Source: Justusliebigvirus alia. Taken from it: a DNA stretch of 64,000 nt. This document shows positions 16,196 through 57,331 of the stretch, piece by piece. Numbering within the stretch: position 1 is the stretch's first letter; each line of letters begins with the position of its first letter. Where the stretch lies: sequence record OZ035799.1. One strand, 5' to 3'. Below the pieces are notes generated by a model. The model worked only from the letters and a program-made list of their open reading frames with translations, had not been told where the DNA came from and searched no databases. The position numbers and the translations under genes are program-made.

Positions 16196-16295
16196 GCGTA
16201 TGATAATCATTTTCATTTGTAAATGAGAATCATTATCATTTAAGTATGTAAGTGATAATCATTCTCACTAAGAGAATGAGAATCATTAGCAAATG
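16196..16295. promoter_or_regulatory. cluster of Fur-box-like palindromes
   Basis: gtaaatgagaatcattatc and gagaatgagaatcattagc each match 16/19 of the Fur consensus GATAATGATAATCATTATC; flanked by gataatcatt half-sites. Confidence 0.35.
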
Positions 16296-17289: not shown

Positions 17290-17562
17290 ATGGCATCATA
17301 TAGCGCATCAATGATTGTAATGGGTATCACTGGTAAACCTATGCGCGGTGGCGGATCTTTCGCTAACATCAATATTGATGGACGTTTATCCCTGGACGCA
17401 GCGATCACAGTGGCACGGGAAACGTTTAAAAAAGAATGTAATTTCAATAAACAAGATTATCTCGGCTTCGTTATTGAAAAAACCGCGCGCTTTGTTGATT
17501 ATAAAAGCCCGAAAATGATCGACACTACACTAAAGGCGCAAGATGTAGCTTTTTTGCTTTAA
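17290..17562 (+). CDS. hypothetical protein
   Basis: 90 aa ORF behind cassette. Confidence 0.5.
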   Translation: MASYSASMIVMGITGKPMRGGGSFANINIDGRLSLDAAITVARETFKKECNFNKQDYLGFVIEKTARFVDYKSPKMIDTTLKAQDVAFLL

Positions 17563-17570
17563 GGCTTGAC

Positions 17571-17625
17571 ACTGAAAAATAATTTGGTAATATATACCAC
17601 ATAAGGCGGGAAATGGTTTCCCGCC
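17571..17625 (+). promoter_or_regulatory. promoter + 5' GC hairpin cassette
   Basis: TTGACA ... TATATACCACATAA ... hairpin GGCGGGAAATGGTTTCCCGCC (17605-17625). Confidence 0.5.
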
Positions 17626-17647
17626 AAATCAAAGAAAGGGTAACACA

Positions 17648-18010
17648 ATGAGCAAGCAAATCAATACTATCATGTTAAACCTGGTATCTTTCCGTGATGA
17701 CGTGAAAAATCTTTCGCGTGATGCAGTGGATGCACGGATCGAAAGCTATCGCACACAGATCGCAACATTACCGTTAAAACGTGATCAACATGCCGCTAAT
17801 ATGATGCTTGATGCTATGATTAAAAAGATGATTCAGTGTGATCTTACCCTGGCTTATGAATATGCTGGCGATCTCTTTGTAACGTATAATAAGCCCGTTC
17901 CAGGTATGAGCACCACGGAAGAATTGCATGCCTTAAATCTGCGACAAGATGCATGGGATAACATGCGCCGTGTTATGGTATGGGCCGAAAGCGGTAAAAT
18001 TTACGAATAA
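17648..18010 (+). CDS. hypothetical protein
   Basis: 120 aa ORF behind cassette. Confidence 0.5.
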   Translation: MSKQINTIMLNLVSFRDDVKNLSRDAVDARIESYRTQIATLPLKRDQHAANMMLDAMIKKMIQCDLTLAYEYAGDLFVTYNKPVPGMSTTEELHALNLRQDAWDNMRRVMVWAESGKIYE

Positions 18011-20180: not shown

Positions 20181-20261
20181 ATGAAACATCGTTCGACCTA
20201 TCTCACAAAACGTTTTAGCTTAGATCATAAATTGGGCTATTACGGAAGAAATAGAAAATAA
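20181..20261 (+). CDS. hypothetical very small protein
   Basis: 26 aa ORF with strong AAAGGAGA SD; speculative. Confidence 0.25.
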   Translation: MKHRSTYLTKRFSLDHKLGYYGRNRK

Positions 20262-20262
20262 T

Positions 20263-20322
20263 TTGACACTGTTTAAAATTCTGGTATAGTTTATCACATA
20301 GGGCGGGAAATGGTTTCCCGCC
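20263..20322 (+). promoter_or_regulatory. promoter + 5' GC hairpin cassette
   Basis: TTGACA (20263-20268), TATAGT (20285-20290), hairpin GGGCGGGAAATGGTTTCCCGCC (20301-20322). Confidence 0.5.
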
Positions 20323-20344
20323 AAATCAAAGAAAGGTTATCATT

Positions 20345-20572
20345 ATGGCTATCGTTATTGTTCGCGTATCCGGTACGGTTGGAATCTCTCAGGTAGTAGC
20401 AGTTATCACAGAGAAGAAAGGGGATGATCTTCACTCCTCCTTGAATAGCTGGGCGGTCGCTAACTTTGGGCAATGGTCGAGCGTTGAGTACATCGAAGCC
20501 TACCAGGTGCCAACGATTAGCCTAACCGATCTGAATGTTGATCGCTTGTTGTGCCTGGATCAATTAAATTAA
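20345..20572 (+). CDS. hypothetical protein
   Basis: 75 aa ORF behind cassette. Confidence 0.5.
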   Translation: MAIVIVRVSGTVGISQVVAVITEKKGDDLHSSLNSWAVANFGQWSSVEYIEAYQVPTISLTDLNVDRLLCLDQLN

Positions 20573-20580
20573 AAATAATA

Positions 20581-20638
20581 TTGACAAGATAACTAAAATC
20601 AGTAAAATGTAATGCATAGGGCGGCAATAGTGCCGCTC
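20581..20638 (+). promoter_or_regulatory. promoter + 5' GC hairpin cassette
   Basis: TTGACA (20581-20586), hairpin GGGCGGCAATAGTGCCGCTC (20619-20638). Confidence 0.5.
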
Positions 20639-20659
20639 CTAGTGAGAGAGATTATCAAA

Positions 20660-20875
20660 ATGACTAATATCCGCACCTTGTTAAAAAATGCAAAGCAAGT
20701 TTTATTTTCAGATGACGAATATTTTAATAAAGATATTACAGGCGTGAAAAATTTAAAAGACGTGAAGGATGTTATCGGTATCCGTGGATCTTTACGTAAA
20801 GGTGACATATACGGTAACAAGGTGCAATATAAACTGTCAAAAGATTATGATTTTACTTTGACATTTATTTCATAA
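20660..20875 (+). CDS. hypothetical protein
   Basis: Start at MTNIRTLLKNAKQ (ATG 20660) after hairpin; the longer track ORF would begin inside the hairpin. Confidence 0.5.
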   Translation: MTNIRTLLKNAKQVLFSDDEYFNKDITGVKNLKDVKDVIGIRGSLRKGDIYGNKVQYKLSKDYDFTLTFIS

Positions 20876-20920
20876 AACCGCTTGCAATACTGCAAAAATA
20901 AAGTAAACTGTACTCATCAA

Positions 20921-20942
20921 GGCGGTGGAATAGCCCACCGCC
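20921..20942 (+). promoter_or_regulatory. 5' GC hairpin (variant)
   Basis: GGCGGTGGAATAGCCCACCGCC; compensatory stem changes relative to other copies. Confidence 0.45.
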
Positions 20943-20965
20943 TAACAAAGAGAAGAGGAAACATC

Positions 20966-21136
20966 ATGATCACTTTCGCTACCCGTGAAGCCGCTCGCAA
21001 CGTTGCACGTAAAGTTAACGCCGCCAACCTGGGCGCTACGCTTAAAGCCCCGGTAAAAGATGAATCAGGTAAATGGATCTTCCCTGGTCTGCGTCACGCT
21101 GATAAGCTGGGAACGTTAACGCTAAAAAATAAATAA
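20966..21136 (+). CDS. hypothetical protein
   Basis: 56 aa (MITFATREAARNVARKVNAANLG...), GAGGAAACATC-ATG. Confidence 0.45.
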   Translation: MITFATREAARNVARKVNAANLGATLKAPVKDESGKWIFPGLRHADKLGTLTLKNK

Positions 21137-23531: not shown

Positions 23532-23816
23532 ATGAAGATCACAAAAGCACTTTCCAACTATGCAGCACGTCGCGGCTTATGCTTAACCGTTGAAAACTTA
23601 GGGAAAGAAGATTTTTTGTGCTTTTGGGAGCTTGAGAATGATAATGAGTGGATCTTCTCTTATTCTATCTGCAAAGATCAAAATGGTTGCTTGTTAACAT
23701 GGCGAGGTAATATCTATTTACCGGAAGAAATAAAACAAGAATTACCAGGCACGATCATGACTGAGAAACAGCTTAAGGAAGTGATCAATTTTGTAGGGCA
23801 AAACATTAAAAAATAA
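23532..23816 (+). CDS. hypothetical protein
   Basis: 94 aa ORF behind cassette. Confidence 0.5.
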   Translation: MKITKALSNYAARRGLCLTVENLGKEDFLCFWELENDNEWIFSYSICKDQNGCLLTWRGNIYLPEEIKQELPGTIMTEKQLKEVINFVGQNIKK

Positions 23817-23817
23817 T

Positions 23818-23877
23818 TTGACAGTAGGCAAACAACGTAGTAAAGTTTATCACATAGGGCGGGAAATGGTTTCCCGC
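23818..23877 (+). promoter_or_regulatory. promoter + 5' GC hairpin cassette
   Basis: TTGACA (23818), hairpin GGGCGGGAAATGGTTTCCCGC (23857-23877). Confidence 0.5.
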
Positions 23878-23900
23878 TCACAACAAAAGAGAAACAAATC

Positions 23901-24071
23901 ATGATCCCGACTATGTTTTACGTATCGCGCAAAGGTCACAATATTTTTTGGTCTGAAGATTTAAATGAAGCCATGACGTTTGCCCGTGATCGTGTTGCTA
24001 TCGGTGGCGTTAATATTACCGTAACCGATGAAAACGGCATTGAATACTACAACGGCGACGATGAAGAGTAA
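23901..24071 (+). CDS. hypothetical protein
   Basis: 56 aa (MIPTMFYVSRKGHNIFWSEDLNEAMTF...); not in track. Confidence 0.4.
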   Translation: MIPTMFYVSRKGHNIFWSEDLNEAMTFARDRVAIGGVNITVTDENGIEYYNGDDEE

Positions 24072-24078
24072 TTAATAA

Positions 24079-24100
24079 GGCGGGGGGAGTATTCCCCGCC
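24079..24100 (+). promoter_or_regulatory. 5' GC hairpin without upstream -35 box
   Basis: GGCGGGGGGAGTATTCCCCGCC starts 8 nt after the preceding stop codon; no TTGACA upstream. Confidence 0.45.
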
Positions 24101-24119
24101 ATCAATAAAGAGATAAATC

Positions 24120-24389
24120 ATGAAAATATCATTGGACGTTGCAATCAAGGCCATCGAATCCGGTTACACCCTGGTAAAAGATGATAAGGCTAAAATAGTG
24201 CATCATGTTAACAAGGAAACAGGCGAAAGCATGATCACATATAAAGCCGCCTACTTTCTCCAATCAGTAGCAGATCCGCGCGTACAGCGCCAGGTCACGG
24301 CGGCTATTGCTAAAAAATTATGTGCTTTACAGGGCACAAGTTTTAACGAGATCCCGCCGTGTTTTGACTGGTCGAGCTTGAAAAAATAG
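24120..24389 (+). CDS. hypothetical protein
   Basis: 89 aa ORF. Confidence 0.5.
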   Translation: MKISLDVAIKAIESGYTLVKDDKAKIVHHVNKETGESMITYKAAYFLQSVADPRVQRQVTAAIAKKLCALQGTSFNEIPPCFDWSSLKK

Positions 24390-24391
24390 TT

Positions 24392-24448
24392 TGACAAAAA
24401 TTATAAATCGGGTAGAATGTATTTCGTAGGGCGGCAATAGTGCCGCTC
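24392..24448 (+). promoter_or_regulatory. promoter + 5' GC hairpin cassette
   Basis: TTGACA (24392), hairpin GGGCGGCAATAGTGCCGCTC (24429-24448). Confidence 0.5.
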
Positions 24449-24469
24449 GCAACTAAAAGAGAAATCATC

Positions 24470-27107: not shown

Positions 27108-27123
27108 ATAACATTCCATACAA

Positions 27124-27149
27124 GGGCGCAATAAGCGCCCTTTCTTTTT
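27124..27149 (+). terminator. rho-independent terminator
   Basis: GGGCGCAATAAGCGCCC hairpin + TTTCTTTTT; closes the plus-strand small-gene array. Confidence 0.65.
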
Positions 27150-27429
27150 ACCTCAATAAAGATGATAGCTTTTACCTATCAAAAACGTTCACCGAAAAAA
27201 GTGAATAGATCGCGGTATCGAGCTAATCAAGGAGCAGATGAACAACCATACCATGAAGATCATAAGGCGCTTACAACGTGTTTTAGACCGCTTATTTTTA
27301 ATTTCTTCATGCAACTATCTGGCAAAAACAGCCTTTTTCTTGTCTTTCCTCTTAAATGATAATCATTCTTATTTATAGCTGATTATTTATGCAATAAACT
27401 GCATAATGCAATAATGATAATCATTCTTA

Positions 27430-27780
27430 ACTTATGACCATCTAACCTATAAAATAATAAGTTATCTAACTAAATTAAAACTAATTATCTTACTTTTATT
27501 TATAACTTACTGTTACTATCTCATTGATAACCTTATATTAAACAACAATAACTAATATAAATCATTACTAAGCTAAATATAATCTATCTAACCTTTAAAA
27601 CTATAACTATAATCTATTGAATTATTGCACAAAGTAACTATTAAATCGTTAGTAACATTACTAAATAATTAATATCCTATTTATTTATGATCTAATCTTT
27701 ACCTTACTATCTATTACCTAAATAATCATTTTATACCGTAATCATTTCATACAATAATTATAACAAGAAATATAATTAGC
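27430..27780. other. G-poor, extremely AT-rich noncoding tract (strand-asymmetric composition)
   Basis: Top strand almost devoid of G over about 350 bp (cta/taa-rich); no ORFs. Confidence 0.4.
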
Positions 27781-27816
27781 AAGCGTATCATTAGCAGCCT
27801 ATGCCGGACACATAGG

Positions 27817-27965
27817 CGGCTAATAATAACGCAACTACACACCCCACATAATAACCATCACCGATAGTTATTATTTGTGCTTATGTAGCTTGCAACAACT
27901 GCAAGCGCAACAATATACATGGTATATTGTATTCCCTTACATTGTTGCGGTGCGTTATTATTAGC
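27817..27965. repeat. long-range inverted repeat (15-bp perfect arms) enclosing a palindrome
   Basis: GCTAATAATAACGCA (27818-27832) and TGCGTTATTATTAGC (27950-27964); internal GCTTGCA-acaac-TGCAAGC palindrome near 27890. Confidence 0.5.
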
Positions 27966-27984
27966 TAATGTTTAGAACATTGGC

Positions 27985-28062
27985 TATAATATAAGCTATC
28001 CAATAATATAAGCTATCCAATAATAATAAGCTATACAATAATAATAAGCTATACAATAATAA
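27985..28062. repeat. iteron-like direct repeats (4 copies, 17-18 bp)
   Basis: ataagctatccaataat x2 followed by ataagctatacaataata x2 in tandem. Confidence 0.6.
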
Positions 28063-28944
28063 ACATCGTGAATAATGATGCTGATGATCATAATGCGCCA
28101 CCTTCCAGGGCGGCGCTATGTGAACACAAAGAAATCTTTCTTGTCAAGAAAAATATTAACACTATTGCGCAAAATTATTTATATATGAATAGATGGTTTT
28201 TCATACTATTGCCCCTATAACATACCTCATTTGTTGCAATGTACCTTCCTATTTGTTGAGTATAGTTATAGCCTATTTGTTGAGCCTACTTTCTTAAAAG
28301 CGCAATAAAGTAGAAATATCTTGATTTTTAGTCGGTTTTATAGTACAGAAAGTATGCAAATGATAATCATTATCAGCTATCTTCCACGGGTAGCACTATT
28401 TCACGCCAGATCATTTCATTTGGCAAGGTGTATATAGATGTTTAGACTTGCCAAGCCATTGATTTACTTAGAATTTATCTGTTTTGTTGTGAGTAGTACC
28501 TTTCTTGCTCAGAAAATAATCAAAAGTCTTATAAGTCATTGAATGATAATGCAAATGATAATTATTCTCATTGATATTTGAGGGGGACGGTCGGCAGAAA
28601 TCGGGGGGCGCTGAAAATCGCGTTAAGCACCTCTCGCAAGCGAGCAGTATTTTGCGGCAAGTTATTGATATTATTGACTTTACGCTTATGAAAAGGGGGT
28701 GTGTCGAAATAAATCGGGTATACCGGAAAATTTTTGTGGCATAGATATTTATTTGTCTATATTATGTACAAAGGGGTGTGTTAAAAATATTAGGTATATA
28801 TAGAATAATTGATAGGGAAATCCTATGCTAATCCCTCCATTAATGATGTTCCTATGTTACTGTTCTTGTAATAGATGAAAAGACGCTGTATGATGTGTGG
28901 CATGAAACGTAAACTTACAACGTAAACTTATAAAGGAGTCTGAT

Positions 28945-29322
28945 ATGTGTGTTCCTCTTAGCAGTCCACTGCTGTTAGAATTTTACAAAGCATGGATGCA
29001 AGATCATTCCTCAATGCATCGTGAGAATGTTGGTTTGTGTATTTGCCTTATGGATTATCTGGCAACCACTATGTCAAAGAAAAAACCTACGCGAGAAGAT
29101 ATAGAACATTTCAAAATGGTTCGCAGTAAAACGCTGGAAGAGATGAAATTGCAATTCACGTGTGCTGGGCTATCCTCCTTCCTGCCCTTTAATGATGATC
29201 TTCTGTGTTATGAAGATGAAGGTAAGAAACATTCTTGCCATACTAACCCAGAGAGATTGCAGTGGGTGAAAGATCGTATTGCCGATTCATGTTTGGTGTT
29301 AGGGGGTGATAATGAAAAGTAA
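28945..29322 (+). CDS. hypothetical protein, paralog family A (copy 1)
   Basis: Shares L..FY.AW, GLC.CL.DY, QFTCAGL...LPFN, CHTN..RLQWVKDRI with ORFs at 29312, 31604, 32596. Confidence 0.5.
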   Translation: MCVPLSSPLLLEFYKAWMQDHSSMHRENVGLCICLMDYLATTMSKKKPTREDIEHFKMVRSKTLEEMKLQFTCAGLSSFLPFNDDLLCYEDEGKKHSCHTNPERLQWVKDRIADSCLVLGGDNEK

Positions 29323-29680
29323 TATTCCGTTGAGTAGTGCAGCTTTAATACGATTCTATAAAGCATGGATTGCCAACCATCCGGCAATGAATCGCACAAC
29401 GAGTGGCTTGTGTGGTTGTCTGGTAGATTATGTAGATGATTTTGTTGGTGAGGTAACTAGAGAAGAAGATAAAAGATGGCGTGATCGTTTGTTGGATAGT
29501 TTGAAATACGAAATGAGGAAACAATTTACATGTGCAGGACTGGACTACAATCTTCCGTTCAATGCAGATTGCATGGATTACCTTTCAGAATGTATAGACT
29601 TGGCGTGTCATACCAACACGTTACGTCTTCAATGGGTGAAAGACAGAATCGAAGATGCAAATAATGCTTGCATTGAATAG
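29312..29680 (+). CDS. hypothetical protein, paralog family A (copy 2)
   Basis: Same motif set as copy 1; start could also be 29306. Confidence 0.5.
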   Translation: MKSNIPLSSAALIRFYKAWIANHPAMNRTTSGLCGCLVDYVDDFVGEVTREEDKRWRDRLLDSLKYEMRKQFTCAGLDYNLPFNADCMDYLSECIDLACHTNTLRLQWVKDRIEDANNACIE

Positions 29681-29751
29681 AAATGCCTGTACACTGTGTT
29701 CCATAAGATATGCAATATCGCGCATAACAAAACTACTAATGAGAGGTGTAA

Positions 29752-30210
29752 ATGAAAACTGTATCTTTGTATCTTGCTAACACGGAGCGTGTACATAATC
29801 TTGTAAAAGAATGCGGTGTGAGTGTTCAATTTAACATAGGAACGCCTTCCGTGGTGACAGGCAGCGAGATGTGTGTTATTGATTTCATCAATGAATATTT
29901 TCGTGGGAAGCCTATTGCTCGTCACTTCATTCGAGAAATGCGAGATGTACAACAGGATTATGAATTCTACCCAGAAATTTGTGAACGCTATGAAACTATT
30001 CTTAGTTCTGTAGAAGATCCAGATACCAGTGAAACAGGTGTTTCCCACTTACTGTGGATGTTGAATGAAATCCAGGATGGGTGTAATGATATGTCTGAAA
30101 CCAAACGCCATCGTTGGCTAGGCTATATTCAGGGTGTTATGGTTATGAAAAACCTTATTACAGTTGATGATGAACGTAACGCTACGCGCCCCGTCTTTAA
30201 TGGAGCATAA
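29752..30210 (+). CDS. hypothetical protein
   Basis: 152 aa; no secure motif. Confidence 0.5.
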   Translation: MKTVSLYLANTERVHNLVKECGVSVQFNIGTPSVVTGSEMCVIDFINEYFRGKPIARHFIREMRDVQQDYEFYPEICERYETILSSVEDPDTSETGVSHLLWMLNEIQDGCNDMSETKRHRWLGYIQGVMVMKNLITVDDERNATRPVFNGA

Positions 30211-30211
30211 C

Positions 30212-30427
30212 ATGAAAAGCATCCAGGTGTGTATTGAAAATAATTGTGGTTATCTGGGATTGACACACGTTGCTTTCCCTCTTATGTTAGATGCCGATAT
30301 CGCTTACAGCGGAGTTGCTTATGTGTCATTCAAGACAATGAGCCAAGTACCTGGCTGGAAGTGGGAAGTAGTTGATGTTGTTGAAGGAGAAGACTATGTT
30401 TTCCTTCCACACGAATATACTGTTTAA
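30212..30427 (+). CDS. hypothetical protein
   Basis: Start at MKSIQVCIENN with GGAG SD directly after upstream stop. Confidence 0.45.
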   Translation: MKSIQVCIENNCGYLGLTHVAFPLMLDADIAYSGVAYVSFKTMSQVPGWKWEVVDVVEGEDYVFLPHEYTV

Positions 30428-30441
30428 AAGAGGAAAAGAAG

Positions 30442-30618
30442 ATGGATAAACAAACTACTGTGTACTTAGTAACAAAGAATACCCCAGGCTGGAGCCAATG
30501 CAGCACTGTACCTTACAAAATCTGTGCAACATTAGAACTAGCACAACGTGCAGAAGCAGAAGTGAATGCCATGCAATACAGCTATGGTGAAATCATTCCT
30601 TTTACTCTTGAACAATAA
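30442..30618 (+). CDS. hypothetical small protein
   Basis: 58 aa (MDKQTTVYLVTKNTPGWSQCSTVPYKICATLELAQRAEAEVNAM...); AGAGGAAAAGAAG SD; not in track. Confidence 0.35.
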   Translation: MDKQTTVYLVTKNTPGWSQCSTVPYKICATLELAQRAEAEVNAMQYSYGEIIPFTLEQ

Positions 30619-30629
30619 GGAGTTGTGTA

Positions 30630-31082
30630 ATGTTTGAAATTGGTAAAGTGTATCGTTTTAAAAACCCATCTTATATCCGTAAGTTTGCTAACGTGTCTGA
30701 GTGCAATAGCAGGATTGCTTCTTTTTTAGGTGATTCCTATTTTCGTGTATTAGATGTGGATGACTGGTATGGTGTCACTGCTTTGCAATCCTTAGCAGGA
30801 GAACAAGAAATTATCGCTCAAAATGAAGGAGACTTTCTTCAGTGTTACACGTTGCTTGCAAAAAGTGAGTTTGAGTATTTTGTAGAAGTCTTAGAGGAAG
30901 CACCAAAAAGTAAACACGAAGAGAAATACCTGCTTGTAGTGGATGGAGTTCCGATCATGGAAACCATCTCCCGTGAGGAAGTTGAAAAAGAGGCGAAACG
31001 TTACAAACTGGATCGTACACAGAGTGTAGTTGAAGTCTATTCTCTTGTTGGTGTTGCAGATATTCATGTGAACATTGTATAA
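30630..31082 (+). CDS. hypothetical protein
   Basis: 150 aa ORF. Confidence 0.5.
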   Translation: MFEIGKVYRFKNPSYIRKFANVSECNSRIASFLGDSYFRVLDVDDWYGVTALQSLAGEQEIIAQNEGDFLQCYTLLAKSEFEYFVEVLEEAPKSKHEEKYLLVVDGVPIMETISREEVEKEAKRYKLDRTQSVVEVYSLVGVADIHVNIV

Positions 31083-31085
31083 TAT

Positions 31086-31298
31086 ATGTGTAATGACAGA
31101 TACATTCTTCGTGTATCTGATAAGTCTCCTATGTTTGACTGGCGGGGCTGGTGGCTACTGGCTCCGATGCAAGGTCTGACTGACGTGGAAAAGGAGGCTT
31201 ATGTGTATACAAAAGAAGATATAGAAGATAACCTTTATTTGACAGATAACATTAAGAATGGTATCTTTGAGTGTAAATTGAAAGGAGAGGAAGAATGA
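31086..31298 (+). CDS. hypothetical protein
   Basis: 70 aa ORF. Confidence 0.4.
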   Translation: MCNDRYILRVSDKSPMFDWRGWWLLAPMQGLTDVEKEAYVYTKEDIEDNLYLTDNIKNGIFECKLKGEEE

Positions 31299-31594
31299 CT
31301 GTTACAGAAAAACTGCGTTGTATTGCAAAGCAAAGTGGAGAAGGCTTATGGTTTCCTATTGATGAAGTTATTCAGGACTGTTATGATCAGGCTAAGACTG
31401 GCAAATATTCCAAAGCATTTAAACCATCTGTTTTCGGTTTGGATGACTATCCGACAAATGAACAAGCAAGGAAACGCCAAGTTGATTTGATTGATCTTGC
31501 TATGGAAGCACTACGAGAGCGTGGGCTTAGTAAGGTGTATGCTTTAAACACCAAAGAGGGTTTTGTAGATTCAGTGATCGTAGATTGGCATTAA
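31295..31594 (+). CDS. hypothetical protein
   Basis: 99 aa ORF, ATGA overlap. Confidence 0.5.
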   Translation: MTVTEKLRCIAKQSGEGLWFPIDEVIQDCYDQAKTGKYSKAFKPSVFGLDDYPTNEQARKRQVDLIDLAMEALRERGLSKVYALNTKEGFVDSVIVDWH

Positions 31595-31603
31595 GGAGAA
31601 GCC

Positions 31604-31972
31604 ATGCAAGAAAATAATAAAGTGTGTAACATGAAAAGCAGCCCCTATTTGCTACAATTTTATGAGTGGTGGTTAGAACAAGAAGATACAAACTTTAGCA
31701 AAAAGCATTATGGTCTTTGCACGTGTCTTGTAGACTTCTTATACAATATTGCTTGGATAAAAGATGTTGAGAATGTATCAAAGCTCCAATCCTCTGTACG
31801 AGAGGAAATGAAGGAACAATTTAAGAAAGCGGGTTTGAACCATTTACATCCGTTTAATACGGATTTCTCGCACTACTTTACGGAAACAGAGCTAGGCATT
31901 GCACACCTTAATAAAGAACGTGTACAATGGGTGATTGATCGTATTCGTGATATGGAGGAATACAATGGTTAA
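31604..31972 (+). CDS. hypothetical protein, paralog family A (copy 3)
   Basis: LLQFYEWW, GLCTCLVDF, QFKKAGL..LHPFN, RVQWVIDRI. Confidence 0.5.
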   Translation: MQENNKVCNMKSSPYLLQFYEWWLEQEDTNFSKKHYGLCTCLVDFLYNIAWIKDVENVSKLQSSVREEMKEQFKKAGLNHLHPFNTDFSHYFTETELGIAHLNKERVQWVIDRIRDMEEYNG

Positions 31973-32183
31973 GTTTAAAACTTTCTGTGCAATCACTGTT
32001 TGTCTTATTCTTGCATACGTGTTATTCTCTGGTATCGTTCGTTTAGGTGAGTATATGGCAAGAGAAGCTCGTGCAAGCGAAGCTAAAAAAGAACAGTGTA
32101 TTGTGTTCAAGCATCAAAGAGATGCTGAAAAGTTTCTCGCACTTGATTGCAATCGTTATGTATCTTATCAAATGTATGAGTAA
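31965..32183 (+). CDS. hypothetical membrane-anchored protein, paralog family C (copy 1)
   Basis: N-terminal TM helix then KEQCIVFKHQRDAEKFL..DCNRY, similar to ORF 36047; GGAGGAATACA SD. Confidence 0.45.
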   Translation: MVKFKTFCAITVCLILAYVLFSGIVRLGEYMAREARASEAKKEQCIVFKHQRDAEKFLALDCNRYVSYQMYE

Positions 32184-32192
32184 GGAGGGTTT

Positions 32193-32417
32193 ATGGTAAA
32201 ACGTCTAGAATGGGATGCGTGTACTGCTCACGCTTGTCACTGTGATATTGTTGAAGATCCTAACGGAGAGATGGTGTATTATGAGGATTACGAAGCATTG
32301 CACAATGCTGTGATTGCTTTGCTGGATGATATTAGCTCACGCTATCCAGGACAACAATTCACGTGTCCACATATCCAACTATTAGCCGAACTTACGGAGT
32401 ATCCAAGTGTTCCATAA
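32193..32417 (+). CDS. hypothetical protein, paralog family B (copy 1)
   Basis: MVKRLEWDACTAHACHCDIVEDPNGEMVYYEDYEAL resembles ORF 36953 (CDIVPDPEGDYVLLADYNKL). Confidence 0.45.
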   Translation: MVKRLEWDACTAHACHCDIVEDPNGEMVYYEDYEALHNAVIALLDDISSRYPGQQFTCPHIQLLAELTEYPSVP

Positions 32418-32418
32418 T

Positions 32419-32586
32419 ATGGGTGTCCCTGAACAACTCCTCTTTATTGTAGGATTAGTAGGCTTATTGGCGGCTGGAGCTAAAGCCGCTTCTCACACGC
32501 ATCACATAATGTTAAGATTTCTATTCCTGCTCCCTTCTATCCTCGTACTACTAGTCATACTGATCGATAACATTTTTCACAATTAA
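32419..32586 (+). CDS. hypothetical small membrane protein
   Basis: 55 aa with two hydrophobic segments; not in track. Confidence 0.3.
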   Translation: MGVPEQLLFIVGLVGLLAAGAKAASHTHHIMLRFLFLLPSILVLLVILIDNIFHN

Positions 32587-32595
32587 GGAGAGGCT

Positions 32596-33180
32596 ATGAG
32601 TAAAATTATACCAAGCAGTTATGAATTATTGCAGTTTTATGTATATTATATAGACTGGGTTAATAGATCGAATGTTAAAGACAATGCGATGTTTAGTAAA
32701 AACATCTGTTTAACAGAAAGTATCTTCCGTTATTGGCACACAGGCAGAAAGTGTACACACAGTGAAGCTATGCGTATTGTAGGTGAATACCTGGAGCAAT
32801 TGCAAAAAGCAGAACTTCCTGTCCTTCACCCATTCAATGAATCTAAAGAAGAATTAGAACAAGAGTGTAGAGAAGGTAAGTGCCATCTGAATGAAAAACG
32901 TATCGAATGGGTGAGGCAACGTTTAGCCGATGCAGGAAATCCTCCTAGTGACTCTGACTATACGTGGTATGATGTAGAGGGTTTAGTTCAAGGTTTTGAG
33001 GCTTGTGCTATAGATAATACCAACTTTGCCAAAGTTTTATGCGAGGCTTATGACCTGGCAGATAAAATCCGAAATCACGGATGGAAACAAGAGCATAAAG
33101 AATCATATGAACGCCTTGACAAGATTTTCAAACAGATCTATTCTAACCACAAGAAGATGTTCCAAATGGAGGATGTGTAA
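32596..33180 (+). CDS. hypothetical protein, paralog family A (copy 4, extended C-terminus)
   Basis: LLQFYVYYIDW, LPVLHPFN, RIEWVRQRL plus about 80 extra C-terminal residues. Confidence 0.5.
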   Translation: MSKIIPSSYELLQFYVYYIDWVNRSNVKDNAMFSKNICLTESIFRYWHTGRKCTHSEAMRIVGEYLEQLQKAELPVLHPFNESKEELEQECREGKCHLNEKRIEWVRQRLADAGNPPSDSDYTWYDVEGLVQGFEACAIDNTNFAKVLCEAYDLADKIRNHGWKQEHKESYERLDKIFKQIYSNHKKMFQMEDV

Positions 33181-33246
33181 TGAAAGAGATTATGTTTGAA
33201 GGGCATCGCATTGAATTGCTAAAACACGTTAAATAAGGAGAGTAAT

Positions 33247-33651
33247 ATGTGGTCTGTTAAAATCAAATATAATGCGCAGTATTATGGTGGAAAGCCTTAC
33301 GAAGTTGTTATTTGTGACTGTATCTCTAAAGAAGTTGCACAGCTTTGTGGTGCTGGTGTTAGTGAAGCTATGAACAAAATGCATAACTCGACTGTGCGTT
33401 ACCTGGATCAAGATATTCCAGAAGATGTAAATGACTATGCTTACGAAGTTATTTACAGTGAAGGTAAGAAGCTCTCTATTGAAGATGCACTTAAAGCACT
33501 ACCTGCTATGTGCAGCCCAACACCAGAAGCAGTTAAAGAGATTTTACCAGAATCCAACCCCGATGAATATGCCTCTATGGTTGCTTCAGATATGTGGAAT
33601 CTCTGTCGAGAAACTATGATTAAAAATCTTGTGGAAATGGCACATGAGTAA
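33247..33651 (+). CDS. hypothetical protein
   Basis: 134 aa ORF with AAGGAGAG SD. Confidence 0.5.
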   Translation: MWSVKIKYNAQYYGGKPYEVVICDCISKEVAQLCGAGVSEAMNKMHNSTVRYLDQDIPEDVNDYAYEVIYSEGKKLSIEDALKALPAMCSPTPEAVKEILPESNPDEYASMVASDMWNLCRETMIKNLVEMAHE

Positions 33652-33862
33652 AACGCACTTTATACATCCGTTTGATCCAAAGAACAAAGAGGTTATACAC
33701 CGCCGTTGGACTGAAACGCGCATTACAAAATGTCCTGTGCCAGCAGCACAGGAATATAACAAAACATATAAAGCAGAATTTGTGGAGTACACCTTTGTGA
33801 ATAACAAAGGGAAGGAGGTTTATGTTCCAGAATACTGCCTTTGGATAAAATGGGAGGAATAA
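33644..33862 (+). CDS. hypothetical protein
   Basis: Start at MSKTHFIHPF; overlaps upstream stop. Confidence 0.4.
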   Translation: MSKTHFIHPFDPKNKEVIHRRWTETRITKCPVPAAQEYNKTYKAEFVEYTFVNNKGKEVYVPEYCLWIKWEE

Positions 33863-34029
33863 TGCAAACATTTTTTATCGACAAGTTCAATAAAAGTATG
33901 AACACGTGGATGGCAACATTCACTATGCAATTTGCGTCATTTAAAGAAGCTCAAGAATGGTGCGATCAACACAAGGATTTTGATTTTTACTATCAAGTTA
34001 ATGCAAACCTTTCTCCAGAGGAGAAATAA
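33862..34029 (+). CDS. hypothetical protein
   Basis: Start at MQTFFIDKF with GGGAGGAATA SD; track ORF start is TTG. Confidence 0.35.
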   Translation: MQTFFIDKFNKSMNTWMATFTMQFASFKEAQEWCDQHKDFDFYYQVNANLSPEEK

Positions 34030-34030
34030 T

Positions 34031-34375
34031 ATGTTAGCTGATATTGAAATCCTTATGTACCGACAAGGTATGATCAAAATGTGGCTAGATTCTTTTAGCA
34101 ACATATACTGCACAGTACGATCAGCAGACGAGCGTAAAACGCTTATTTTATCTGCTATTGTTGATAAACAACGTTTCTTCAAAGAAATTTTGCAAACAGG
34201 CTTCTCCGATGCAGGAGTAGAGATTGCAACGCTTAGTCTTGGAGTGCTGTCTTACTTGGAATCCGTTGTTTTATATGTCTTCTCTTTAGAAGAACACTTG
34301 CAATTTGAAGCATTAAAACTTATCTTAGATGCTGCAATTGACATAGAACAAAATCGAATTGATTCTTTTGAATAA
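34031..34375 (+). CDS. hypothetical protein
   Basis: Start at MLADIEILMY with GGAGAAATAAT SD. Confidence 0.45.
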   Translation: MLADIEILMYRQGMIKMWLDSFSNIYCTVRSADERKTLILSAIVDKQRFFKEILQTGFSDAGVEIATLSLGVLSYLESVVLYVFSLEEHLQFEALKLILDAAIDIEQNRIDSFE

Positions 34376-34391
34376 AAATAAGGAGGAAACT

Positions 34392-34850
34392 ATGCAAGAG
34401 GTTAAACATTATCCACATGGTCGTAGTTTTGTAGCTGTATGGCATGTTCCTGCTCGTAATGAACTATTTTGTGCATCTTTTCATTACAAAGATGGACAAT
34501 ATTTCACCTATGACGAAACGATGGATGATTTTATCCCAGAGTGCGATCATGGGTATACACCAATGTTCTTTAAACGTATGAAAGCTCGTTTCTTCGTTAC
34601 AGATGTTGATGGTGAACCTACTTGGCACATCGAAGAAGATTGGCAAGATTCTGTGGATATTAAAGAAGCCCCAGAATGGGCTACATTACTGGTACACGTC
34701 AAAACCCCTACTCTTGACGTTATGGCGTGGGTTAATCATGATGATACCCATTACCAATACATAAATGGTAGCACAGAGATTTCTGGTGAGATTATTGGTC
34801 GTTGGAAGCCTACGAATCAGGTTGCTATTGTCGGGTATAAGACAGTATAA
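34392..34850 (+). CDS. hypothetical protein
   Basis: Start at MQEVKHYPHG with AAGGAGGAAAC SD. Confidence 0.5.
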   Translation: MQEVKHYPHGRSFVAVWHVPARNELFCASFHYKDGQYFTYDETMDDFIPECDHGYTPMFFKRMKARFFVTDVDGEPTWHIEEDWQDSVDIKEAPEWATLLVHVKTPTLDVMAWVNHDDTHYQYINGSTEISGEIIGRWKPTNQVAIVGYKTV

Positions 34851-34851
34851 T

Positions 34852-35046
34852 ATGAAAAATAGTGTAGATTGGGATGATTTATCCGATTTTGAAAAATGGT
34901 TCTTAGGTAGTGGTTGTTATGCAGATGGGGATCTCGAAAGAGATCCTTCTGGAAACTACACTATGCCATTAACCCAAGGTTTTTATGAGTGCTGGTGCGC
35001 AGCACAAAACAACGTACTGAATAAGGAGACAACACAATGCAATTAA
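34852..35046 (+). CDS. hypothetical protein
   Basis: Start at MKNSVDWDD. Confidence 0.4.
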   Translation: MKNSVDWDDLSDFEKWFLGSGCYADGDLERDPSGNYTMPLTQGFYECWCAAQNNVLNKETTQCN

Positions 35047-35276
35047 ACATCGGACAACCCATTTTTGATGCAGATACTGGTCAATATGCAGTGATTGTTG
35101 CTCGTATGAGCGGTGATGACCTTATTGTTTCAGAACTACTCGGATCAGATCCACAACTGCGCGTAGTATGTGACCTATATCTTCGAGACGAAAGTGATCG
35201 CATTGCACTGAAAGAAGATGGTATGCTCTACTATACCTGGACTAGAGATCCTGGGGTAACGGAGGTAGAGGTATAA
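35037..35276 (+). CDS. hypothetical protein
   Basis: 79 aa ORF. Confidence 0.45.
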   Translation: MQLNIGQPIFDADTGQYAVIVARMSGDDLIVSELLGSDPQLRVVCDLYLRDESDRIALKEDGMLYYTWTRDPGVTEVEV

Positions 35277-35575
35277 TGGTAAGGAATAGGGGTTTACATA
35301 AAAGAAGACACCTTACTTACTGGCATCGTAAAGTACATGAACCTGTATCAAAGAAAGAATGGCAGTATCTGCCTTATGGGAAGGAGCGAAGAAAGTATTT
35401 GTTAGCTCATTTAAGGGTACATGGTTCTCTTCCTGTTAACAGTAAGTGGCAATTGCAAACAGCTTATGACGAAGATATGAAATATCTGTTAAAGAGGGGC
35501 ATTATTTGCCTTGTTAAGATCGGACGATGGAAATCTCGTCAATCTTATATCGTACTTAAACAGGAGAAACGATGA
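35276..35575 (+). CDS. hypothetical basic protein
   Basis: 99 aa, Lys/Arg/His-rich. Confidence 0.45.
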   Translation: MVRNRGLHKRRHLTYWHRKVHEPVSKKEWQYLPYGKERRKYLLAHLRVHGSLPVNSKWQLQTAYDEDMKYLLKRGIICLVKIGRWKSRQSYIVLKQEKR

Positions 35576-35823
35576 ATATCAAAGATGTTGTAGCATACGT
35601 AGAAGATGAAGTTAAAAACCATACAAGTTTACTGAAAGTAATGGTTGTGGTTAAAGATGGTATTGGACAAGTAAACGTACAACATGTCTTATCTGACACT
35701 GTATATAATGTGTTTGAATGTAAAGAAACACCTCATGGAGTACGTGTGGTTTATATTGATAACAATTTCAAAGAATGTGTGAGACATACCTTAGAAAATG
35801 AACTAAGGATCACAATCTTATGA
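35572..35823 (+). CDS. hypothetical protein
   Basis: 83 aa ORF, ATGA overlap. Confidence 0.45.
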   Translation: MNIKDVVAYVEDEVKNHTSLLKVMVVVKDGIGQVNVQHVLSDTVYNVFECKETPHGVRVVYIDNNFKECVRHTLENELRITIL

Positions 35824-35993
35824 GTTATTATGTTGTACCTTATGCCAATAAGTGGAGAGTAAGAGAAACTTGTTTTCTATTCTCCTGGTGGGCTACGTTC
35901 GGAGATGGTTGTGGGAATGATACAGGAAAGCCTGTAGAGTACGACACAAAAGAAGAATGTGAACAGTGGATAAAATTAACACAAAGATGTTGA
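35820..35993 (+). CDS. hypothetical small Cys-rich protein
   Basis: 57 aa (MSYYVVPYANKWRVRETCFLFSWWATFGDGCGND...ECEQWIKLTQRC); not in track. Confidence 0.3.
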   Translation: MSYYVVPYANKWRVRETCFLFSWWATFGDGCGNDTGKPVEYDTKEECEQWIKLTQRC

Positions 35994-36046
35994 CACGATC
36001 TTAACTTCTTGTTAGTATCAATGTGTACTAACGATAAGGAGGGTTT

Positions 36047-36271
36047 ATGAAGTCTGTAAACAAGTTGCAACAATTTTTGTTATCAACAGCAATCTTTTTG
36101 CTTTTGTTAATTGGTATTCTGTATGGTGCATCTAATTTGTACAATCTACATAATGATGTAGAACAGAACAAAGAGAAGTGCATCATTCTAAAACACAATA
36201 AACAAGCAGAAGATTTCTTAAAGAATAAGTGTTACAACTACATTGATTATGAGGAGACAAACAATGATTAA
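36047..36271 (+). CDS. hypothetical membrane-anchored protein, paralog family C (copy 2)
   Basis: TM helix then KEKCIILKHNKQAEDFLKNKCYNY; AAGGAGGG SD. Confidence 0.45.
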   Translation: MKSVNKLQQFLLSTAIFLLLLIGILYGASNLYNLHNDVEQNKEKCIILKHNKQAEDFLKNKCYNYIDYEETNND

Positions 36272-36506
36272 AGAATTAGGTATGCGAGTATACAGTGAGT
36301 GGACTCCAAGCAATGGCCCAGGAGTTGTTGCAGCTAAATGTATCAATGGTCGTATTGAGTACCTGGAAGGGTATGAAGATAATGAAGAGTTAGTAGATTA
36401 TGCTAAATCTTTTATTGAAGATGATACAGACTTTATTGTATTATATGATACAGGAGAGTTAGAGTATGGATATGATGGAGATGGGGATATCTTTGAACTT
36501 CAATAA
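36264..36506 (+). CDS. hypothetical protein
   Basis: Start at MIKELGMRVY with GAGGAGACAAAC SD (track start is TTG). Confidence 0.45.
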   Translation: MIKELGMRVYSEWTPSNGPGVVAAKCINGRIEYLEGYEDNEELVDYAKSFIEDDTDFIVLYDTGELEYGYDGDGDIFELQ

Positions 36507-36507
36507 G

Positions 36508-36553
36508 AGTAGTAAGTAAGATATAAAGAGTAGTAAGTAAGATATAAAGAGTA
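36508..36553. repeat. tandem direct repeat, 21 bp x 2
   Basis: gagtagtaagtaagatataaa repeated back to back. Confidence 0.5.
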
Positions 36554-36621
36554 TATAGTTAGTTATAGAGTTAGTAACATTACATATACTCTTTCCATGT
36601 ATAACATGGAATATTCTCTAC

Positions 36622-36672
36622 CTCGCTATCGCTCGGTATATAAGATTAGGGTAGCATGTTTTTCACGAAAAG
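36622..36672 (+). promoter_or_regulatory. conserved intergenic motif (copy 2)
   Basis: CTCGCTATCGCTCG ... TTAGGGTAGCATGTTTTTCACGAAAAG; about 65 nt upstream of ORF 36735. Confidence 0.4.
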
Positions 36673-36734
36673 TAAAACTGTTTATACCGATTGATAGCAG
36701 GTTTTTAATAGATTCTATCTATGAGGAGTAGAAA

Positions 36735-36953
36735 GTGTACAAATTATATAAAGGAAAAGATAAGTTTACGGGTAATACATCTGGTTTCTATGTAACACCA
36801 CGTGGTGTTGCTGTATTTGATTGGATTCCTGGTACTCCAGATCGTGAAATGATCTCTCTTGTAAAACTGTCGGAACAAGAATATACTTATGGTGACATTA
36901 CAACATTCTATTCTCGTGCAGAAAATCCAAAACTGATCGCGGAGTGGGAATAA
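36735..36953 (+). CDS. hypothetical protein (GTG start)
   Basis: GAGGAG SD 7 nt before GTG 36735. Confidence 0.4.
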   Translation: MYKLYKGKDKFTGNTSGFYVTPRGVAVFDWIPGTPDREMISLVKLSEQEYTYGDITTFYSRAENPKLIAEWE

Positions 36954-37216
36954 TGGTTACACGATATGGTTTAGAGGTGTACAGCCAAGGTGCTGCTGGT
37001 CAATGTGATATTGTACCAGATCCAGAAGGAGACTATGTTCTTCTTGCTGATTACAACAAGCTAGAAGAAAGACTTCTGGCTGTGTATGCTAAAGAGAACA
37101 AAACAATCTGTCCTTATTGCAATGGAATGGGTTGGGTGGTTGCAGATGTTGGACAAATGTATGAATGTGTACCTTGTAAAACCACAGGCTTTATTGAAAA
37201 GGATACTGACAAATGA
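36953..37216 (+). CDS. hypothetical protein, paralog family B (copy 2) with zinc-ribbon-like C-terminus
   Basis: CDIVPDPEGDYVLLADY...ICPYCNGMGWV...CVPCKTTG. Confidence 0.45.
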   Translation: MVTRYGLEVYSQGAAGQCDIVPDPEGDYVLLADYNKLEERLLAVYAKENKTICPYCNGMGWVVADVGQMYECVPCKTTGFIEKDTDK

Positions 37217-37461
37217 CTGTAGCAGATAAAATGAGAGAACTGGCAGAAAACGCAGAACTTAACAAAGCAAAGGAGAGTTTACAAAACATCTACGCGTATA
37301 TTGAAAGAGCAGCTAAAGATGGAGACAGAGAAGCTGCTATATACACGCTTTATCCAACTTTTGTAAAAGTTAGCTTGGATGCTGAAGGTTTTTCAACTTT
37401 TATTGATACAGAAACATCTCATTACGATGAAAACTTTACTCGAATAGTTATTCGATGGTAA
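37213..37461 (+). CDS. hypothetical protein
   Basis: 82 aa ORF. Confidence 0.45.
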   Translation: MTVADKMRELAENAELNKAKESLQNIYAYIERAAKDGDREAAIYTLYPTFVKVSLDAEGFSTFIDTETSHYDENFTRIVIRW

Positions 37462-52927: not shown

Positions 52928-53194
52928 TTACTCCGCAATCTGAGCCATGAATTCACGTAGTTCAGAAAAACCTCCTACGTGGGTTAGCTGTTCACCATCT
53001 TCCACAAAAATCTGAGGAAATGTGCGTGGTAGAACACCTGTTTTCTCTAAAACCAGATTCTGAATCTGATCTAAAGAATAGTCTTCATCTAAGGTAAGAT
53101 ATTTAAAATCCTGTTCACGCTGTTCTAGTAGAATCTTAGCGTTAGTGCAGAAAGGACAATTTGGTTTACCGTAGATAATAAAATTCATTTTCAC
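52928..53194 (-). CDS. glutaredoxin (NrdH/Grx-like redoxin)
   Basis: IIYGKPNCPFCTNAK active-site CPFC motif. Confidence 0.75.
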   Translation of the reverse strand: MKMNFIIYGKPNCPFCTNAKILLEQREQDFKYLTLDEDYSLDQIQNLVLEKTGVLPRTFPQIFVEDGEQLTHVGGFSELREFMAQIAE

Positions 53195-56659: not shown

Positions 56660-56986
56660 TTACCAAACGTGTTGAGAAATAATAGTTTCCGTTTCAATGT
56701 TATATTTTTCAAGAAGTTGTGCGTAGGCTTCTTTTGCATTCTTATTTAGTTGCTCAAGATCTACAGCTACACTTCCTTCGCCACCTTCTAAATAAATCCC
56801 ATATATGCAATAAGATGCATCAGCGTCATAGAAAGGTGAGATACGGCTTAAATCAAGACCTTCTTGTAAGAACCAATTAAAATCTCCATCAAATTCTTCT
56901 TCAATTCTAGGATCTTCTCCTACAGCCTCTTCCCATTTATTAAAAGGTGCACCCTGTAACATACGCCATTCAGTGGCAACTCCCAT
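56660..56986 (-). CDS. hypothetical protein
   Basis: 108 aa acidic ORF with AGGAGGAAGATA SD. Confidence 0.5.
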   Translation of the reverse strand: MGVATEWRMLQGAPFNKWEEAVGEDPRIEEEFDGDFNWFLQEGLDLSRISPFYDADASYCIYGIYLEGGEGSVAVDLEQLNKNAKEAYAQLLEKYNIETETIISQHVW

Positions 56987-57122
56987 TATCTTCCTCCTCT
57001 TCTTTTTCTTCCGTGTGAACGAAGCCTAAACCGTTACAATTCCAACACGGAATAAATTGTTCCATACTAACAATAAAATTCCCAGTACCACCGCAGATAG
57101 GACAAATACTTACATCGTCCAT
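56970..57122 (-). CDS. hypothetical small zinc-ribbon protein
   Basis: 50 aa (MDDVSICPICGGTGNF...CWNCNGLGF...) with two CxxC pairs; GAGGAG SD; resembles the zinc-ribbon tail of ORF 36953; not in track. Confidence 0.35.
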   Translation of the reverse strand: MDDVSICPICGGTGNFIVSMEQFIPCWNCNGLGFVHTEEKEEEEDNGSCH

Positions 57123-57124
57123 TA

Positions 57125-57331
57125 TTAAAGCTCCTCAATCTTTTCTAACATCTGTTTTAACTCATTCTCTGTTAATAGAATTTCTGTGATACCATCATAA
57201 GTTTCTACCATCAGAGTAAAACATTTCTCTCCATCTGAACATATAAAAGCACCACCTTCATCTTCTGTTAAGTCAGAATTAATATCTACATCAACAAAAT
57301 CAATCATCTTTTTCTCCTTTGATAATTTCAA
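57125..57331 (-). CDS. hypothetical protein
   Basis: 68 aa acidic ORF. Confidence 0.45.
   Translation of the reverse strand: MKLSKEKKMIDFVDVDINSDLTEDEGGAFICSDGEKCFTLMVETYDGITEILLTENELKQMLEKIEEL

Follow-up and report, generated by a model that had tools for sequence, protein, structure and literature searches.

A stretch of 64,000 nucleotides from Justusliebigvirus alia (record OZ035799.1, hereafter the window) carries, between positions 28945 and 37216, eight small plus-strand genes that fall into three families, here called A (four copies), B and C (two copies each). It is clear that these families are true paralogs and real coding genes. The copies are ancient, each now held under purifying selection, and they lie in a block of accessory genes of a lytic phage of the phi92-like type. 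Family A consists of a single all-helical domain, portable and specific to phages, of about 110 amino acids, in which a set of residues is fixed from T7-like phages of Rhizobium to coliphages. Taken as a whole, it is reasonably probable that these old and constrained paralog families serve early interaction with the host.

Reality, age and selection of the families

Within each family the similarity is well beyond that expected from composition. Expectation (E) values in BLASTP comparisons are 7e-32 for A1-A2, 5e-25 for A1-A3, 6e-19 for A2-A3 and 1e-6 to 3e-9 for A4 against the other A copies, with 2e-4 for the B pair and 4e-7 for the C pair. Smith-Waterman scores set against shuffled sequences give z values of 45.7, 37.9 and 28.0 for the A pairs, 11.9-15.3 for the pairs that include A4, 8.8 for B and 14.4 for C, the last falling only to 14.0 when the soluble tails alone are compared, leaving the hydrophobic helix aside; for every pair the observed score was reached by 0 of 1000 shuffles. 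Matches across profiles of the PHROG database are reciprocal, B1 matching phrog_22955 (E 4e-4) and B2 matching phrog_23083 (E 5e-4). All eight genes have an ATG start with a Shine-Dalgarno (SD) motif upstream, and it is because of these signals and of ratios of nonsynonymous to synonymous change (dN/dS) well below 1 that they are taken to be coding. The idea that the similarities are compositional chance, or that the open reading frames (ORFs) are not genes, could draw on B, the weakest family, whose common part comprises only about 30 N-terminal residues at a raw E of 2e-4. It is already refuted by the shuffles, the reciprocal profile matches, the conservation across eleven genomes under purifying selection and the SD motifs, and its probability is practically nil.

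An earlier note on this DNA had placed eight genes in three families at the start positions given in Table 1, and this arrangement holds in its details. The motifs that it quoted for family A are conserved alignment columns; A4 is longer than the other copies, at 194 against about 122 amino acids, the extension measuring about 75-76 residues where about 80 had been claimed; the proteins of family C are membrane-anchored, each by one strongly hydrophobic N-terminal transmembrane helix (KD19 2.55 in C1 and 2.41 in C2); and the zinc-finger tail of B2 does recur in a minus-strand ORF, 56970-57134(-), with an E of 2.7e-4 by hidden Markov model (HMM). This tail match is the sole exception to the result that family HMMs searched against the 64-kb window find no additional copy of A, B or C, and the pattern CxxCxGxG-x13-CxxC occurs in the window only in B2 and in this minus-strand ORF. 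The same note had considered that the shared motifs might not exceed composition, which the z values of 8.8-45.7 contradict, or that all copies might be identical recent duplicates, which is not so either, the longest common exact run being at most 11 nucleotides. Two further candidates were rejected. ORF 36264-36506 is no third member of B (E 0.46), its apparent link coming from P0196, in which a deletion has joined B1 to it, and ORF 55966-56121(-) is no third member of C (E 0.036), its sequence being implausible.

Table 1. Members of the three families and associated features, in window coordinates
Feature	Position	Strand	Description
A1	28945..29322	+	125 aa; phrog_2510 E 7e-22; SD + ATG; C-terminal ~10 residues come from a small membrane ORF whose tail is fused on
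A2	29312..29680	+	122 aa; cassette with 91-97% nucleotide identity to Phapecoctavirus; ortholog dN/dS 0.20
A3	31604..31972	+	122 aa; phrog_2510 E 1.4e-25; dN/dS 0.09; copy modelled with AlphaFold2
A4	32596..33180	+	194 aa; A domain at residues ~5-120; C-terminal module 32950-33177; phrog_27059 E 1e-139; dN/dS 0.10
B1	32193..32417	+	74 aa; isoelectric point (pI) 4.3; phrog_23083; z 8.8; dN/dS 0.03
B2	36953..37216	+	87 aa; N-terminal B module and zinc-finger unit CPYCNGMG-x11-CVPC at ~37109-37177; phrog_22955; dN/dS 0.06
C1	31965..32183	+	72 aa; N-terminal transmembrane helix and ~35-aa tail; phrog_15662; start overlaps A3 stop
C2	36047..36271	+	74 aa; architecture as C1; phrog_23204; dN/dS 0.26
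Stand-alone zinc-finger protein	56970..57122	-	50 aa; CPICGGTG-x11-CWNC; related to B2 tail
Gene-poor leader	27150..28940		precedes the A1-A2 array; follows terminator-like hairpin 27122-27142

The longest identical run of DNA between paralogs is 8-11 nucleotides and their synonymous sites are saturated (proportion of synonymous differences, pS, 0.63-0.95), so that a dN/dS among paralogs, which the earlier note had proposed as a check, is uninformative. Ratios for orthologs, from pooled pairwise NG86 counts over the window and ten related genomes, are 0.03-0.20 for the A and B genes (Table 1), 0.26 for C2 and 0.59 for C1, the two C genes having the highest values in the region and none exceeding 1; for 20 neighbouring genes they are 0.00-0.18. 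The variants of C1 amount to a handful of conservative changes (V/I, S/T, E/D, F/L) and two alternative C-termini. A3, A4, B1, B2, C1 and C2 are found in all eleven genomes compared, A4 as two ORFs in phage cardinal, and only A1 and A2 are adjacent paralogs, the other six of the eight genes being dispersed among unrelated genes. Because the shared runs of DNA are short, the synonymous sites saturated and the ortholog ratios low, the copies are taken to be ancient and individually constrained, and not the product of a recent accordion-like expansion. The earlier note had read the region as repeated tandem duplication under diversifying selection. In the recent sense such duplication is at odds with the short exact runs and the saturation, and diversifying selection finds no echo in A and B ratios close to those of the neighbours or in an A2 protein that is 98% identical between two genera; the ratios of C1 and C2 are higher, yet the changes behind them are few and conservative.

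The family A domain and its companions

Family A corresponds to phrog_2510, phrog_6418 and phrog_27059. The phrog_2510 profile matches all four copies, with E from 4.5e-17 for A4 to 1.4e-25, and neither Pfam nor NCBIfam holds a model for the family. A family profile run with HMMER against 1.84 billion cluster representatives matches 954 clusters at E<=1e-3, of which 269 also pass E<=1e-10. Most are single domains of 100-125 amino acids, with some proteins carrying two or three A domains in tandem (P0031, P0070 and BcepSaruman P0081) and others in which the domain is embedded inside a larger protein. One apparent member, P0035 (2115 amino acids), is a repetitive false positive. The signature of the domain, FY / GLC / E..QF..AGL / PFN / H.N..R..WV, is complete in A1 to A3, and A4 lacks the G-L-C triplet while keeping the other motifs. 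In the numbering of A3, the conserved residues are S13, L16, F19, Y20, G37, L38, C39, N/C41, L42, E68, M69, Q72, F73, A76, G77, L78, P83, F84, N85, Y91, E94, H101, N103, R106, W109, V110 and R113; over 120 representatives P83, F84 and R106 are invariant, C39 and Y20 are each kept in 119, W109 in 117 and Q72 in 116. The AlphaFold2 model of A3 (predicted local distance difference test, pLDDT, 85.7) consists of six helices. Structural matches in BFVD are to uncharacterised phage proteins only, and a profile search of all PDB chains gave no match and no solved structural relative. The median pI of the family, 5.3, argues against DNA binding.

Across T7-like, N4-like, T1-like and P22-like phages the A domain is a feature of early or accessory regions. 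Measured from the left end, its gene is at 2.3-2.9 kb in Rhizobium phage RHEph08 (Autographiviridae) and at 1.9-2.3 kb in Erwinia phage Kuerle (Schitoviridae); it is found among blocks of small ORFs in Skatevirus SeSz-2 and in Bas80, and in the P22-like Salmonella phage SEN22 the domain is the middle of an 'EaA protein' encoded between recombination genes and the integrase. Fusions occur with DUF551 and with N-terminal segments of the Ead/Ea22 type. Within the Stephanstirmvirinae, the equivalent block contains nine copies in phiWec181 and ten in PsgM04F, and phi92 has two; a tandem triple in the arrays of phiWec181 and PsgM04F takes the same position at the head of the block as A1-A2. The first two genes of the phiWec181 array group with A1, A2 and A3 in one cluster of a neighbour-joining tree, outside which A4 and other copies fall at 18-53% identity. 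The 76-residue extension of A4 matches a separate gene of 75 amino acids in phiWec181 and PsgM04F (E 1e-5 and 8e-5; L014 29174-29389 for the former), which in both phages lies directly downstream of an A-domain gene. A4 is therefore a fusion of the A domain with a second module, or else the Phapecoctavirus pair is a fission, and in either case the two modules are probably linked in function.

Families B and C are confined to the Stephanstirmvirinae, with one C-like gene and three partial B-like genes in Phapecoctavirus. The B proteins are small and acidic (pI 4.3-4.4), and their shared module reads C-D-I-V-x-D-P-x-G-x-x-V-x-x-x-D-Y-x-x-L. When the CxxCxGxG proteins are compared with the DnaJ zinc finger (PF00684) and Anti-TRAP (PF15777), the Pfam matches are weak (E 0.016 and 0.027); that of the B2 tail to PF00684, at E 0.016, scores 15.9 bits against a gathering threshold of 32.7. 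The AlphaFold2 model of B2 has a pLDDT of 50.7 and was left out of the fold search. B2 also matches phrog_13972 (E 3e-9), by way of which some annotation pipelines label it 'DNA ligase', a label that is not credible for a protein of 87 amino acids. Residues 2-48 of B1 show a borderline similarity (E 7.7e-4) to phrog_3592, a profile of Lar-like restriction alleviation proteins. Lar is defined by a four-cysteine zinc ribbon, and an assignment of B to Lar is not borne out, as B1 and B2 do not conserve such a ribbon, having a single aligned Cys in common, and there is no Pfam match to Lar. In family C the tail of about 35 residues contains two conserved cysteines, in the pattern KE-x-C-I-x-x-K-H-x-x-x-A-E-x-F-L-x-x-x-C-x-x-Y; since lysines precede the helix, a topology with the N-terminus inside and the C-terminus outside is suggested, along with a periplasmic disulfide. 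C precedes B at both sites, C1 and B1 being adjacent and C2 and B2 about 680 bp apart, an order that hints at an old segmental duplication.

Exchange at the head of the block, and its setting

Among relatives the A1/A2 locus exists in at least five structural alleles. A1 and A2 flank a membrane ORF of 51 amino acids (MWELVGIVWLMIKAGFVGFGLLIILCMF...) in ESCO8, EC_OE_11, AMO3598 and Eryne; this ORF, at L008 (ESCO8) 988-1143, is gone from the window, where, as in EmilieFrey, a deletion of 138 bp relative to ESCO8 has fused the tail of A1 to that of the membrane ORF, A2 following. A single A1/A2 hybrid gene is present in KKE7M, EC.P2, UAB_1, JLBYU50 and VEcB-OZ035773, A2 alone in muut and most Phapecoctavirus, A1 alone in ALITA, and only the last ~50 nucleotides of A2 in phi92, PHB05, ESCO9 and others. 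Both genes occur together in 19 of the 111 records with a match. A further arrangement is seen in P0033, in which the membrane ORF is fused to an A2-like domain. In KKE7M and EC.P2 the hybrid junction lies within the 11-nucleotide stretch TGGGTGAAAGA, which encodes WVKD and is common to A1 and A2, and because the junction lies there the notion that the A paralogs act as substrates for recombination, put forward in the earlier note, is supported for A1/A2, by way of microhomology. The comparison of copy number across relatives that the note had also proposed reveals variation at A1/A2, and constancy of A3, A4, B and C in the eleven genomes. A2 is 98% identical at the protein level to the product of phiWec181 20705-21106, and the A2 cassette would either have moved between genera or be exceptionally constrained. 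A1/A2 is a dispensable, recombining and horizontally exchanged array at the head of the block, and it constitutes a natural allele series (two genes, hybrid, one gene, none) that could be used in competition or host-panel work. Elsewhere in the block, metagenomic chimeras such as P0017 (A4 with ORF 33932-34375) and P0196 (B1 with ORF 36264-36506) suggest frequent deletions, or may be assembly artefacts.

How the copies came about can be seen in more than one way. A gene accordion, in which recent tandem duplication is followed by rapid divergence in an arms race with host defences or receptors, would account for the variable copy number of A1/A2 among phages that are 96-98% identical, for the 9-10 copies with their tandem triple in Phapecoctavirus, and for C1 and C2 having the top ratios in the region. 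It is nevertheless very unlikely, given that the copies share no DNA similarity, that their synonymous sites are saturated, that the A and B orthologs evolve at ratios like those of their neighbours, that A2 is nearly unchanged across genera, that the C1 polymorphisms are conservative and that six of the eight genes have no adjacent paralog. One further explanation is that the copies are separate imports of a mobile phage domain by mosaic recombination and not in-situ duplicates. The A2 cassette, at 91-97% nucleotide identity across Phapecoctavirus and flanked by DNA of 70-85% identity or unalignable, is consistent with such acquisition, as are the spread of family A over many unrelated phage groups and the placement of A4 and several phiWec181 copies in different clades. 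However, A1, A2 and A3 form a single clade with the first two genes of the phiWec181 array, in keeping with duplication inside the subfamily; the B and C pairs, confined as they are to Stephanstirmvirinae, most simply arose within the lineage, and the recurring order of C before B hints at segmental duplication. On balance independent acquisition is doubtful, if less so than the accordion.

The leader ahead of A1, about 1.8 kb long and gene-poor, contains Fur-box-like palindromes and four 18-bp tandem units, and may control the block. Clusters of the palindromes occupy two intergenic stretches of the plus-strand block, 16196-16290 and 27355-28570, with sites at 16196, 16219, 16248, 16272, 27410, 28356 and 28551. 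The sequence AATGATAATCATT is found 12 times at one mismatch or fewer against 0.47 expected, and 19-mers within four mismatches of GATAATGATAATCATTATC, the E. coli Fur consensus, number 10 against 0.38 expected. The best site, 28356 (GCAAATGATAATCATTATC), has two mismatches, lies about 590 bp upstream of A1 and is kept in EmilieFrey, Eryne and cardinal, as well as upstream of the A arrays in the Phapecoctavirus-like phiWec181 and PsgM04F. Such sites could be early promoters responsive to iron and Fur, sites that titrate Fur, or targets of a phage regulator. The 18-bp units, ATAAGCTATMCAATAATA, stand head to tail at 27991-28061, are spaced 17-18 bp apart and resemble iterons; 5 matches were counted where 0.37 are expected. 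A 37-nucleotide unit is repeated three times within 28075-28600, at 28075, 28354 and 28549, each copy starting with ATG and overlapping a Fur-like site; these units could encode the starts of tiny hydrophobic peptides (MQMIIIISYLPR... and MMLMIIMRHLPG...) or be DNA elements, and in some relatives ORFs of 105-114 bp are annotated at the equivalent of this region.

Comparative work was based on an annotated phage collection. The region 28900-37300 is 100% identical to OZ035770.1, also of Justusliebigvirus alia, and 96-98% identical to about 55 other phi92-like phages of E. coli. To judge from the annotation of relatives, EmilieFrey/Bas61 and Eryne among them, the families are part of a plus-strand run of about 28 kb and about 90 small genes (window ~12-40 kb), almost all annotated as 'hypothetical' in relatives and bordered at both edges by minus-strand blocks of nucleotide-metabolism genes. 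We infer that this block is probably expressed early because of the positions of A-domain genes in other phages. Several observations stand apart from the three families. Four records named 'Campylobacter phage' (MG065639/645/656/689; host C. jejuni) are about 97% identical to this region of an E. coli phage and are likely mislabelled or contaminant genomes. Relatives have an extra gene of 687 bp right after A4 (EmilieFrey, L001, 6050-6736), which is missing in the window (33180-33247) and from which the C-terminal part of the chimeric proteins P0030 and P0197 may derive, and an extra gene of 249 bp between C1 and B1 (L001 4768-5016), likewise missing (32183-32193). An all-against-all comparison of ORFs revealed short similar stretches on both strands at ~17525-18010, 20215-20650 and 23714-24450, in the upstream part of the plus-strand block, which are probably repeated DNA elements, for example promoter or terminator modules. 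The minus-strand ORFs 53191-54075(-) and 55463-56452(-) are 29% identical over 128 residues (E 1e-4); by position relative to EmilieFrey they are probably two dehydratase/reductase genes of a dTDP-sugar pathway, an ordinary case of paralogy that is separate from families A to C.

Possible roles and comparison with known systems

Early interaction with the host, the role favoured here, may be pictured as follows. Family A would be an early cytoplasmic effector domain, whose conserved residues may make up one site; through it the domain would bind or act on a target shared by the Proteobacteria, either a small molecule or a conserved protein of the host. Its variable segments (residues 24-36, 43-67 and 86-100 of A3) and its fusion partners (the A4 tail, DUF551 and the Ead/Ea22 coiled coil) could tune specificity or localisation, and several diverged copies would be kept, each under purifying selection, if they are not redundant. 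The C proteins, presumably anchored in the inner membrane with a small, probably periplasmic and disulfide-bonded tail, are candidates for modification of the envelope or for superinfection exclusion. The B proteins may be small acidic binding proteins of the cytoplasm, in which the DnaJ-type zinc finger of B2 is most likely a protein-binding unit. The earlier note had also suggested host range as a role; in the sense of receptor recognition this is unlikely, the proteins being soluble or of the inner membrane and the block presumably early.

Several points weigh against this proposal. Every functional step in it is inferred, and no experiment or annotated homolog assigns a function to A, B or C. 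The conserved polar residues of family A could serve the structure and not binding or catalysis. About 15% of representatives have Tyr or Arg in place of His101, and the Cys that is otherwise invariant is missing from A4, so that a single common chemistry is not guaranteed. Transcript data on the timing of the block were looked for and none were found, so 'early' rests on position and on the placement of homologs. The dN/dS values come from 6-11 close genomes and no phylogenetic site model, and a few positively selected sites would escape such counts. One alternative is that family A serves in anti-defence, as a sponge for immune signals or an inhibitor of a defence enzyme, with different copies covering different systems. 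Its early or accessory placement across phage types, small size, strongly conserved putative pocket, dispensable copies and expansion in large phages would all suit this. Scans of the eight proteins with Pfam, NCBIfam and PADLOC, however, gave nothing usable (PADLOC returned one sub-significant match, to Cas12d), the searched PDB copy, which includes published anti-defence structures, contains no structural or sequence relative of family A, no dedicated anti-defence HMM library having been searched, and a domain so strongly conserved between phages of Rhizobium and of E. coli is more easily reconciled with a universal target than with patchily distributed defence systems. Anti-defence as the role of family A is accordingly unlikely, though not negligibly so. 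A bolder form of the proposal, to which we give a similarly small share of belief, is that family A has an unrecognised phage-specific fold with an active or ligand site formed by Cys39, Glu68, Gln72, Pro-Phe-Asn, Asn103 and Arg106, and constitutes a new class of early effector. If so, it would be an enzyme, or a binder of small molecules or proteins, with a target conserved across Proteobacteria, present in large phages in up to 10 diverged copies and built by temperate phages into mosaics of the Ea22/EaA type.

Much of a large phage genome consists of blocks of small genes to which no function has been assigned, and eight hypothetical proteins are here resolved into three defined families. 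Database records list the genes as hypothetical proteins, and PHROGs had already grouped them; no paper on the families was found, literature on these PHROG identifiers, on phi92-like paralogs and on DUF551 yielded no functional data on families A to C, and the phage TnSeq literature found concerned PhiKZ only. Family A, being broad, strongly conserved, variable in copy number and without a solved structural relative, is a good first target for functional work.

Old paralog families are common in the accessory regions of phages, of which A, B and C are a further and now well-described example. The PHROG 2510, 6418 and 27059 entries represent the same domain as A1-A4 but carry no function, no structure and no mention of multi-copy arrays. 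Poxviruses reportedly possess 'genomic accordions' (Elde et al. 2012), and the A1/A2 copy number likewise grows and shrinks among close relatives; accordion copies, however, are near-identical and recent, whereas the A copies have no DNA identity and are under purifying selection. With the DnaJ zinc finger and Anti-TRAP, the B2 tail and the minus-strand ORF 56970-57122(-) have in common one CxxCxGxG...CxxC unit each, although DnaJ has two such units and B2 has no J domain. A parallel in organisation is offered by the EaA/Ea22 proteins of P22-like and lambdoid phages. Ea22-type proteins, grouped with Ead as InterPro IPR025153, are assemblies of portable domains encoded in the earliest-transcribed non-essential lambdoid region; their biochemical function is unknown, a pro-lysogenic role has been reported for Ea22, and the published structure of the lambda Ea22 C-terminal domain is a mixed alpha-beta fold, unlike the all-helical family A (PMC10834534; PMC7093339). 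The A domain is internal to 'EaA protein' entries of 250-400 amino acids and, like DUF551, is portable among early non-essential regions. The A proteins of the window differ in standing alone, at 122-194 amino acids, with no N-terminal coiled coil of the Ead/Ea22 type: the N-terminal matches to phrog_60/660/3323 seen in P0138 and P0156 are absent from A1-A4, the PDB-wide profile search, which should include the lambda Ea22 C-terminal domain, gave no match to family A, and a pro-lysogenic role is not transferable to a lytic phage. Through family A the phi92-like phages, which are lytic, are nonetheless connected with the mosaic EaA/Ea22 proteins found in temperate phages.

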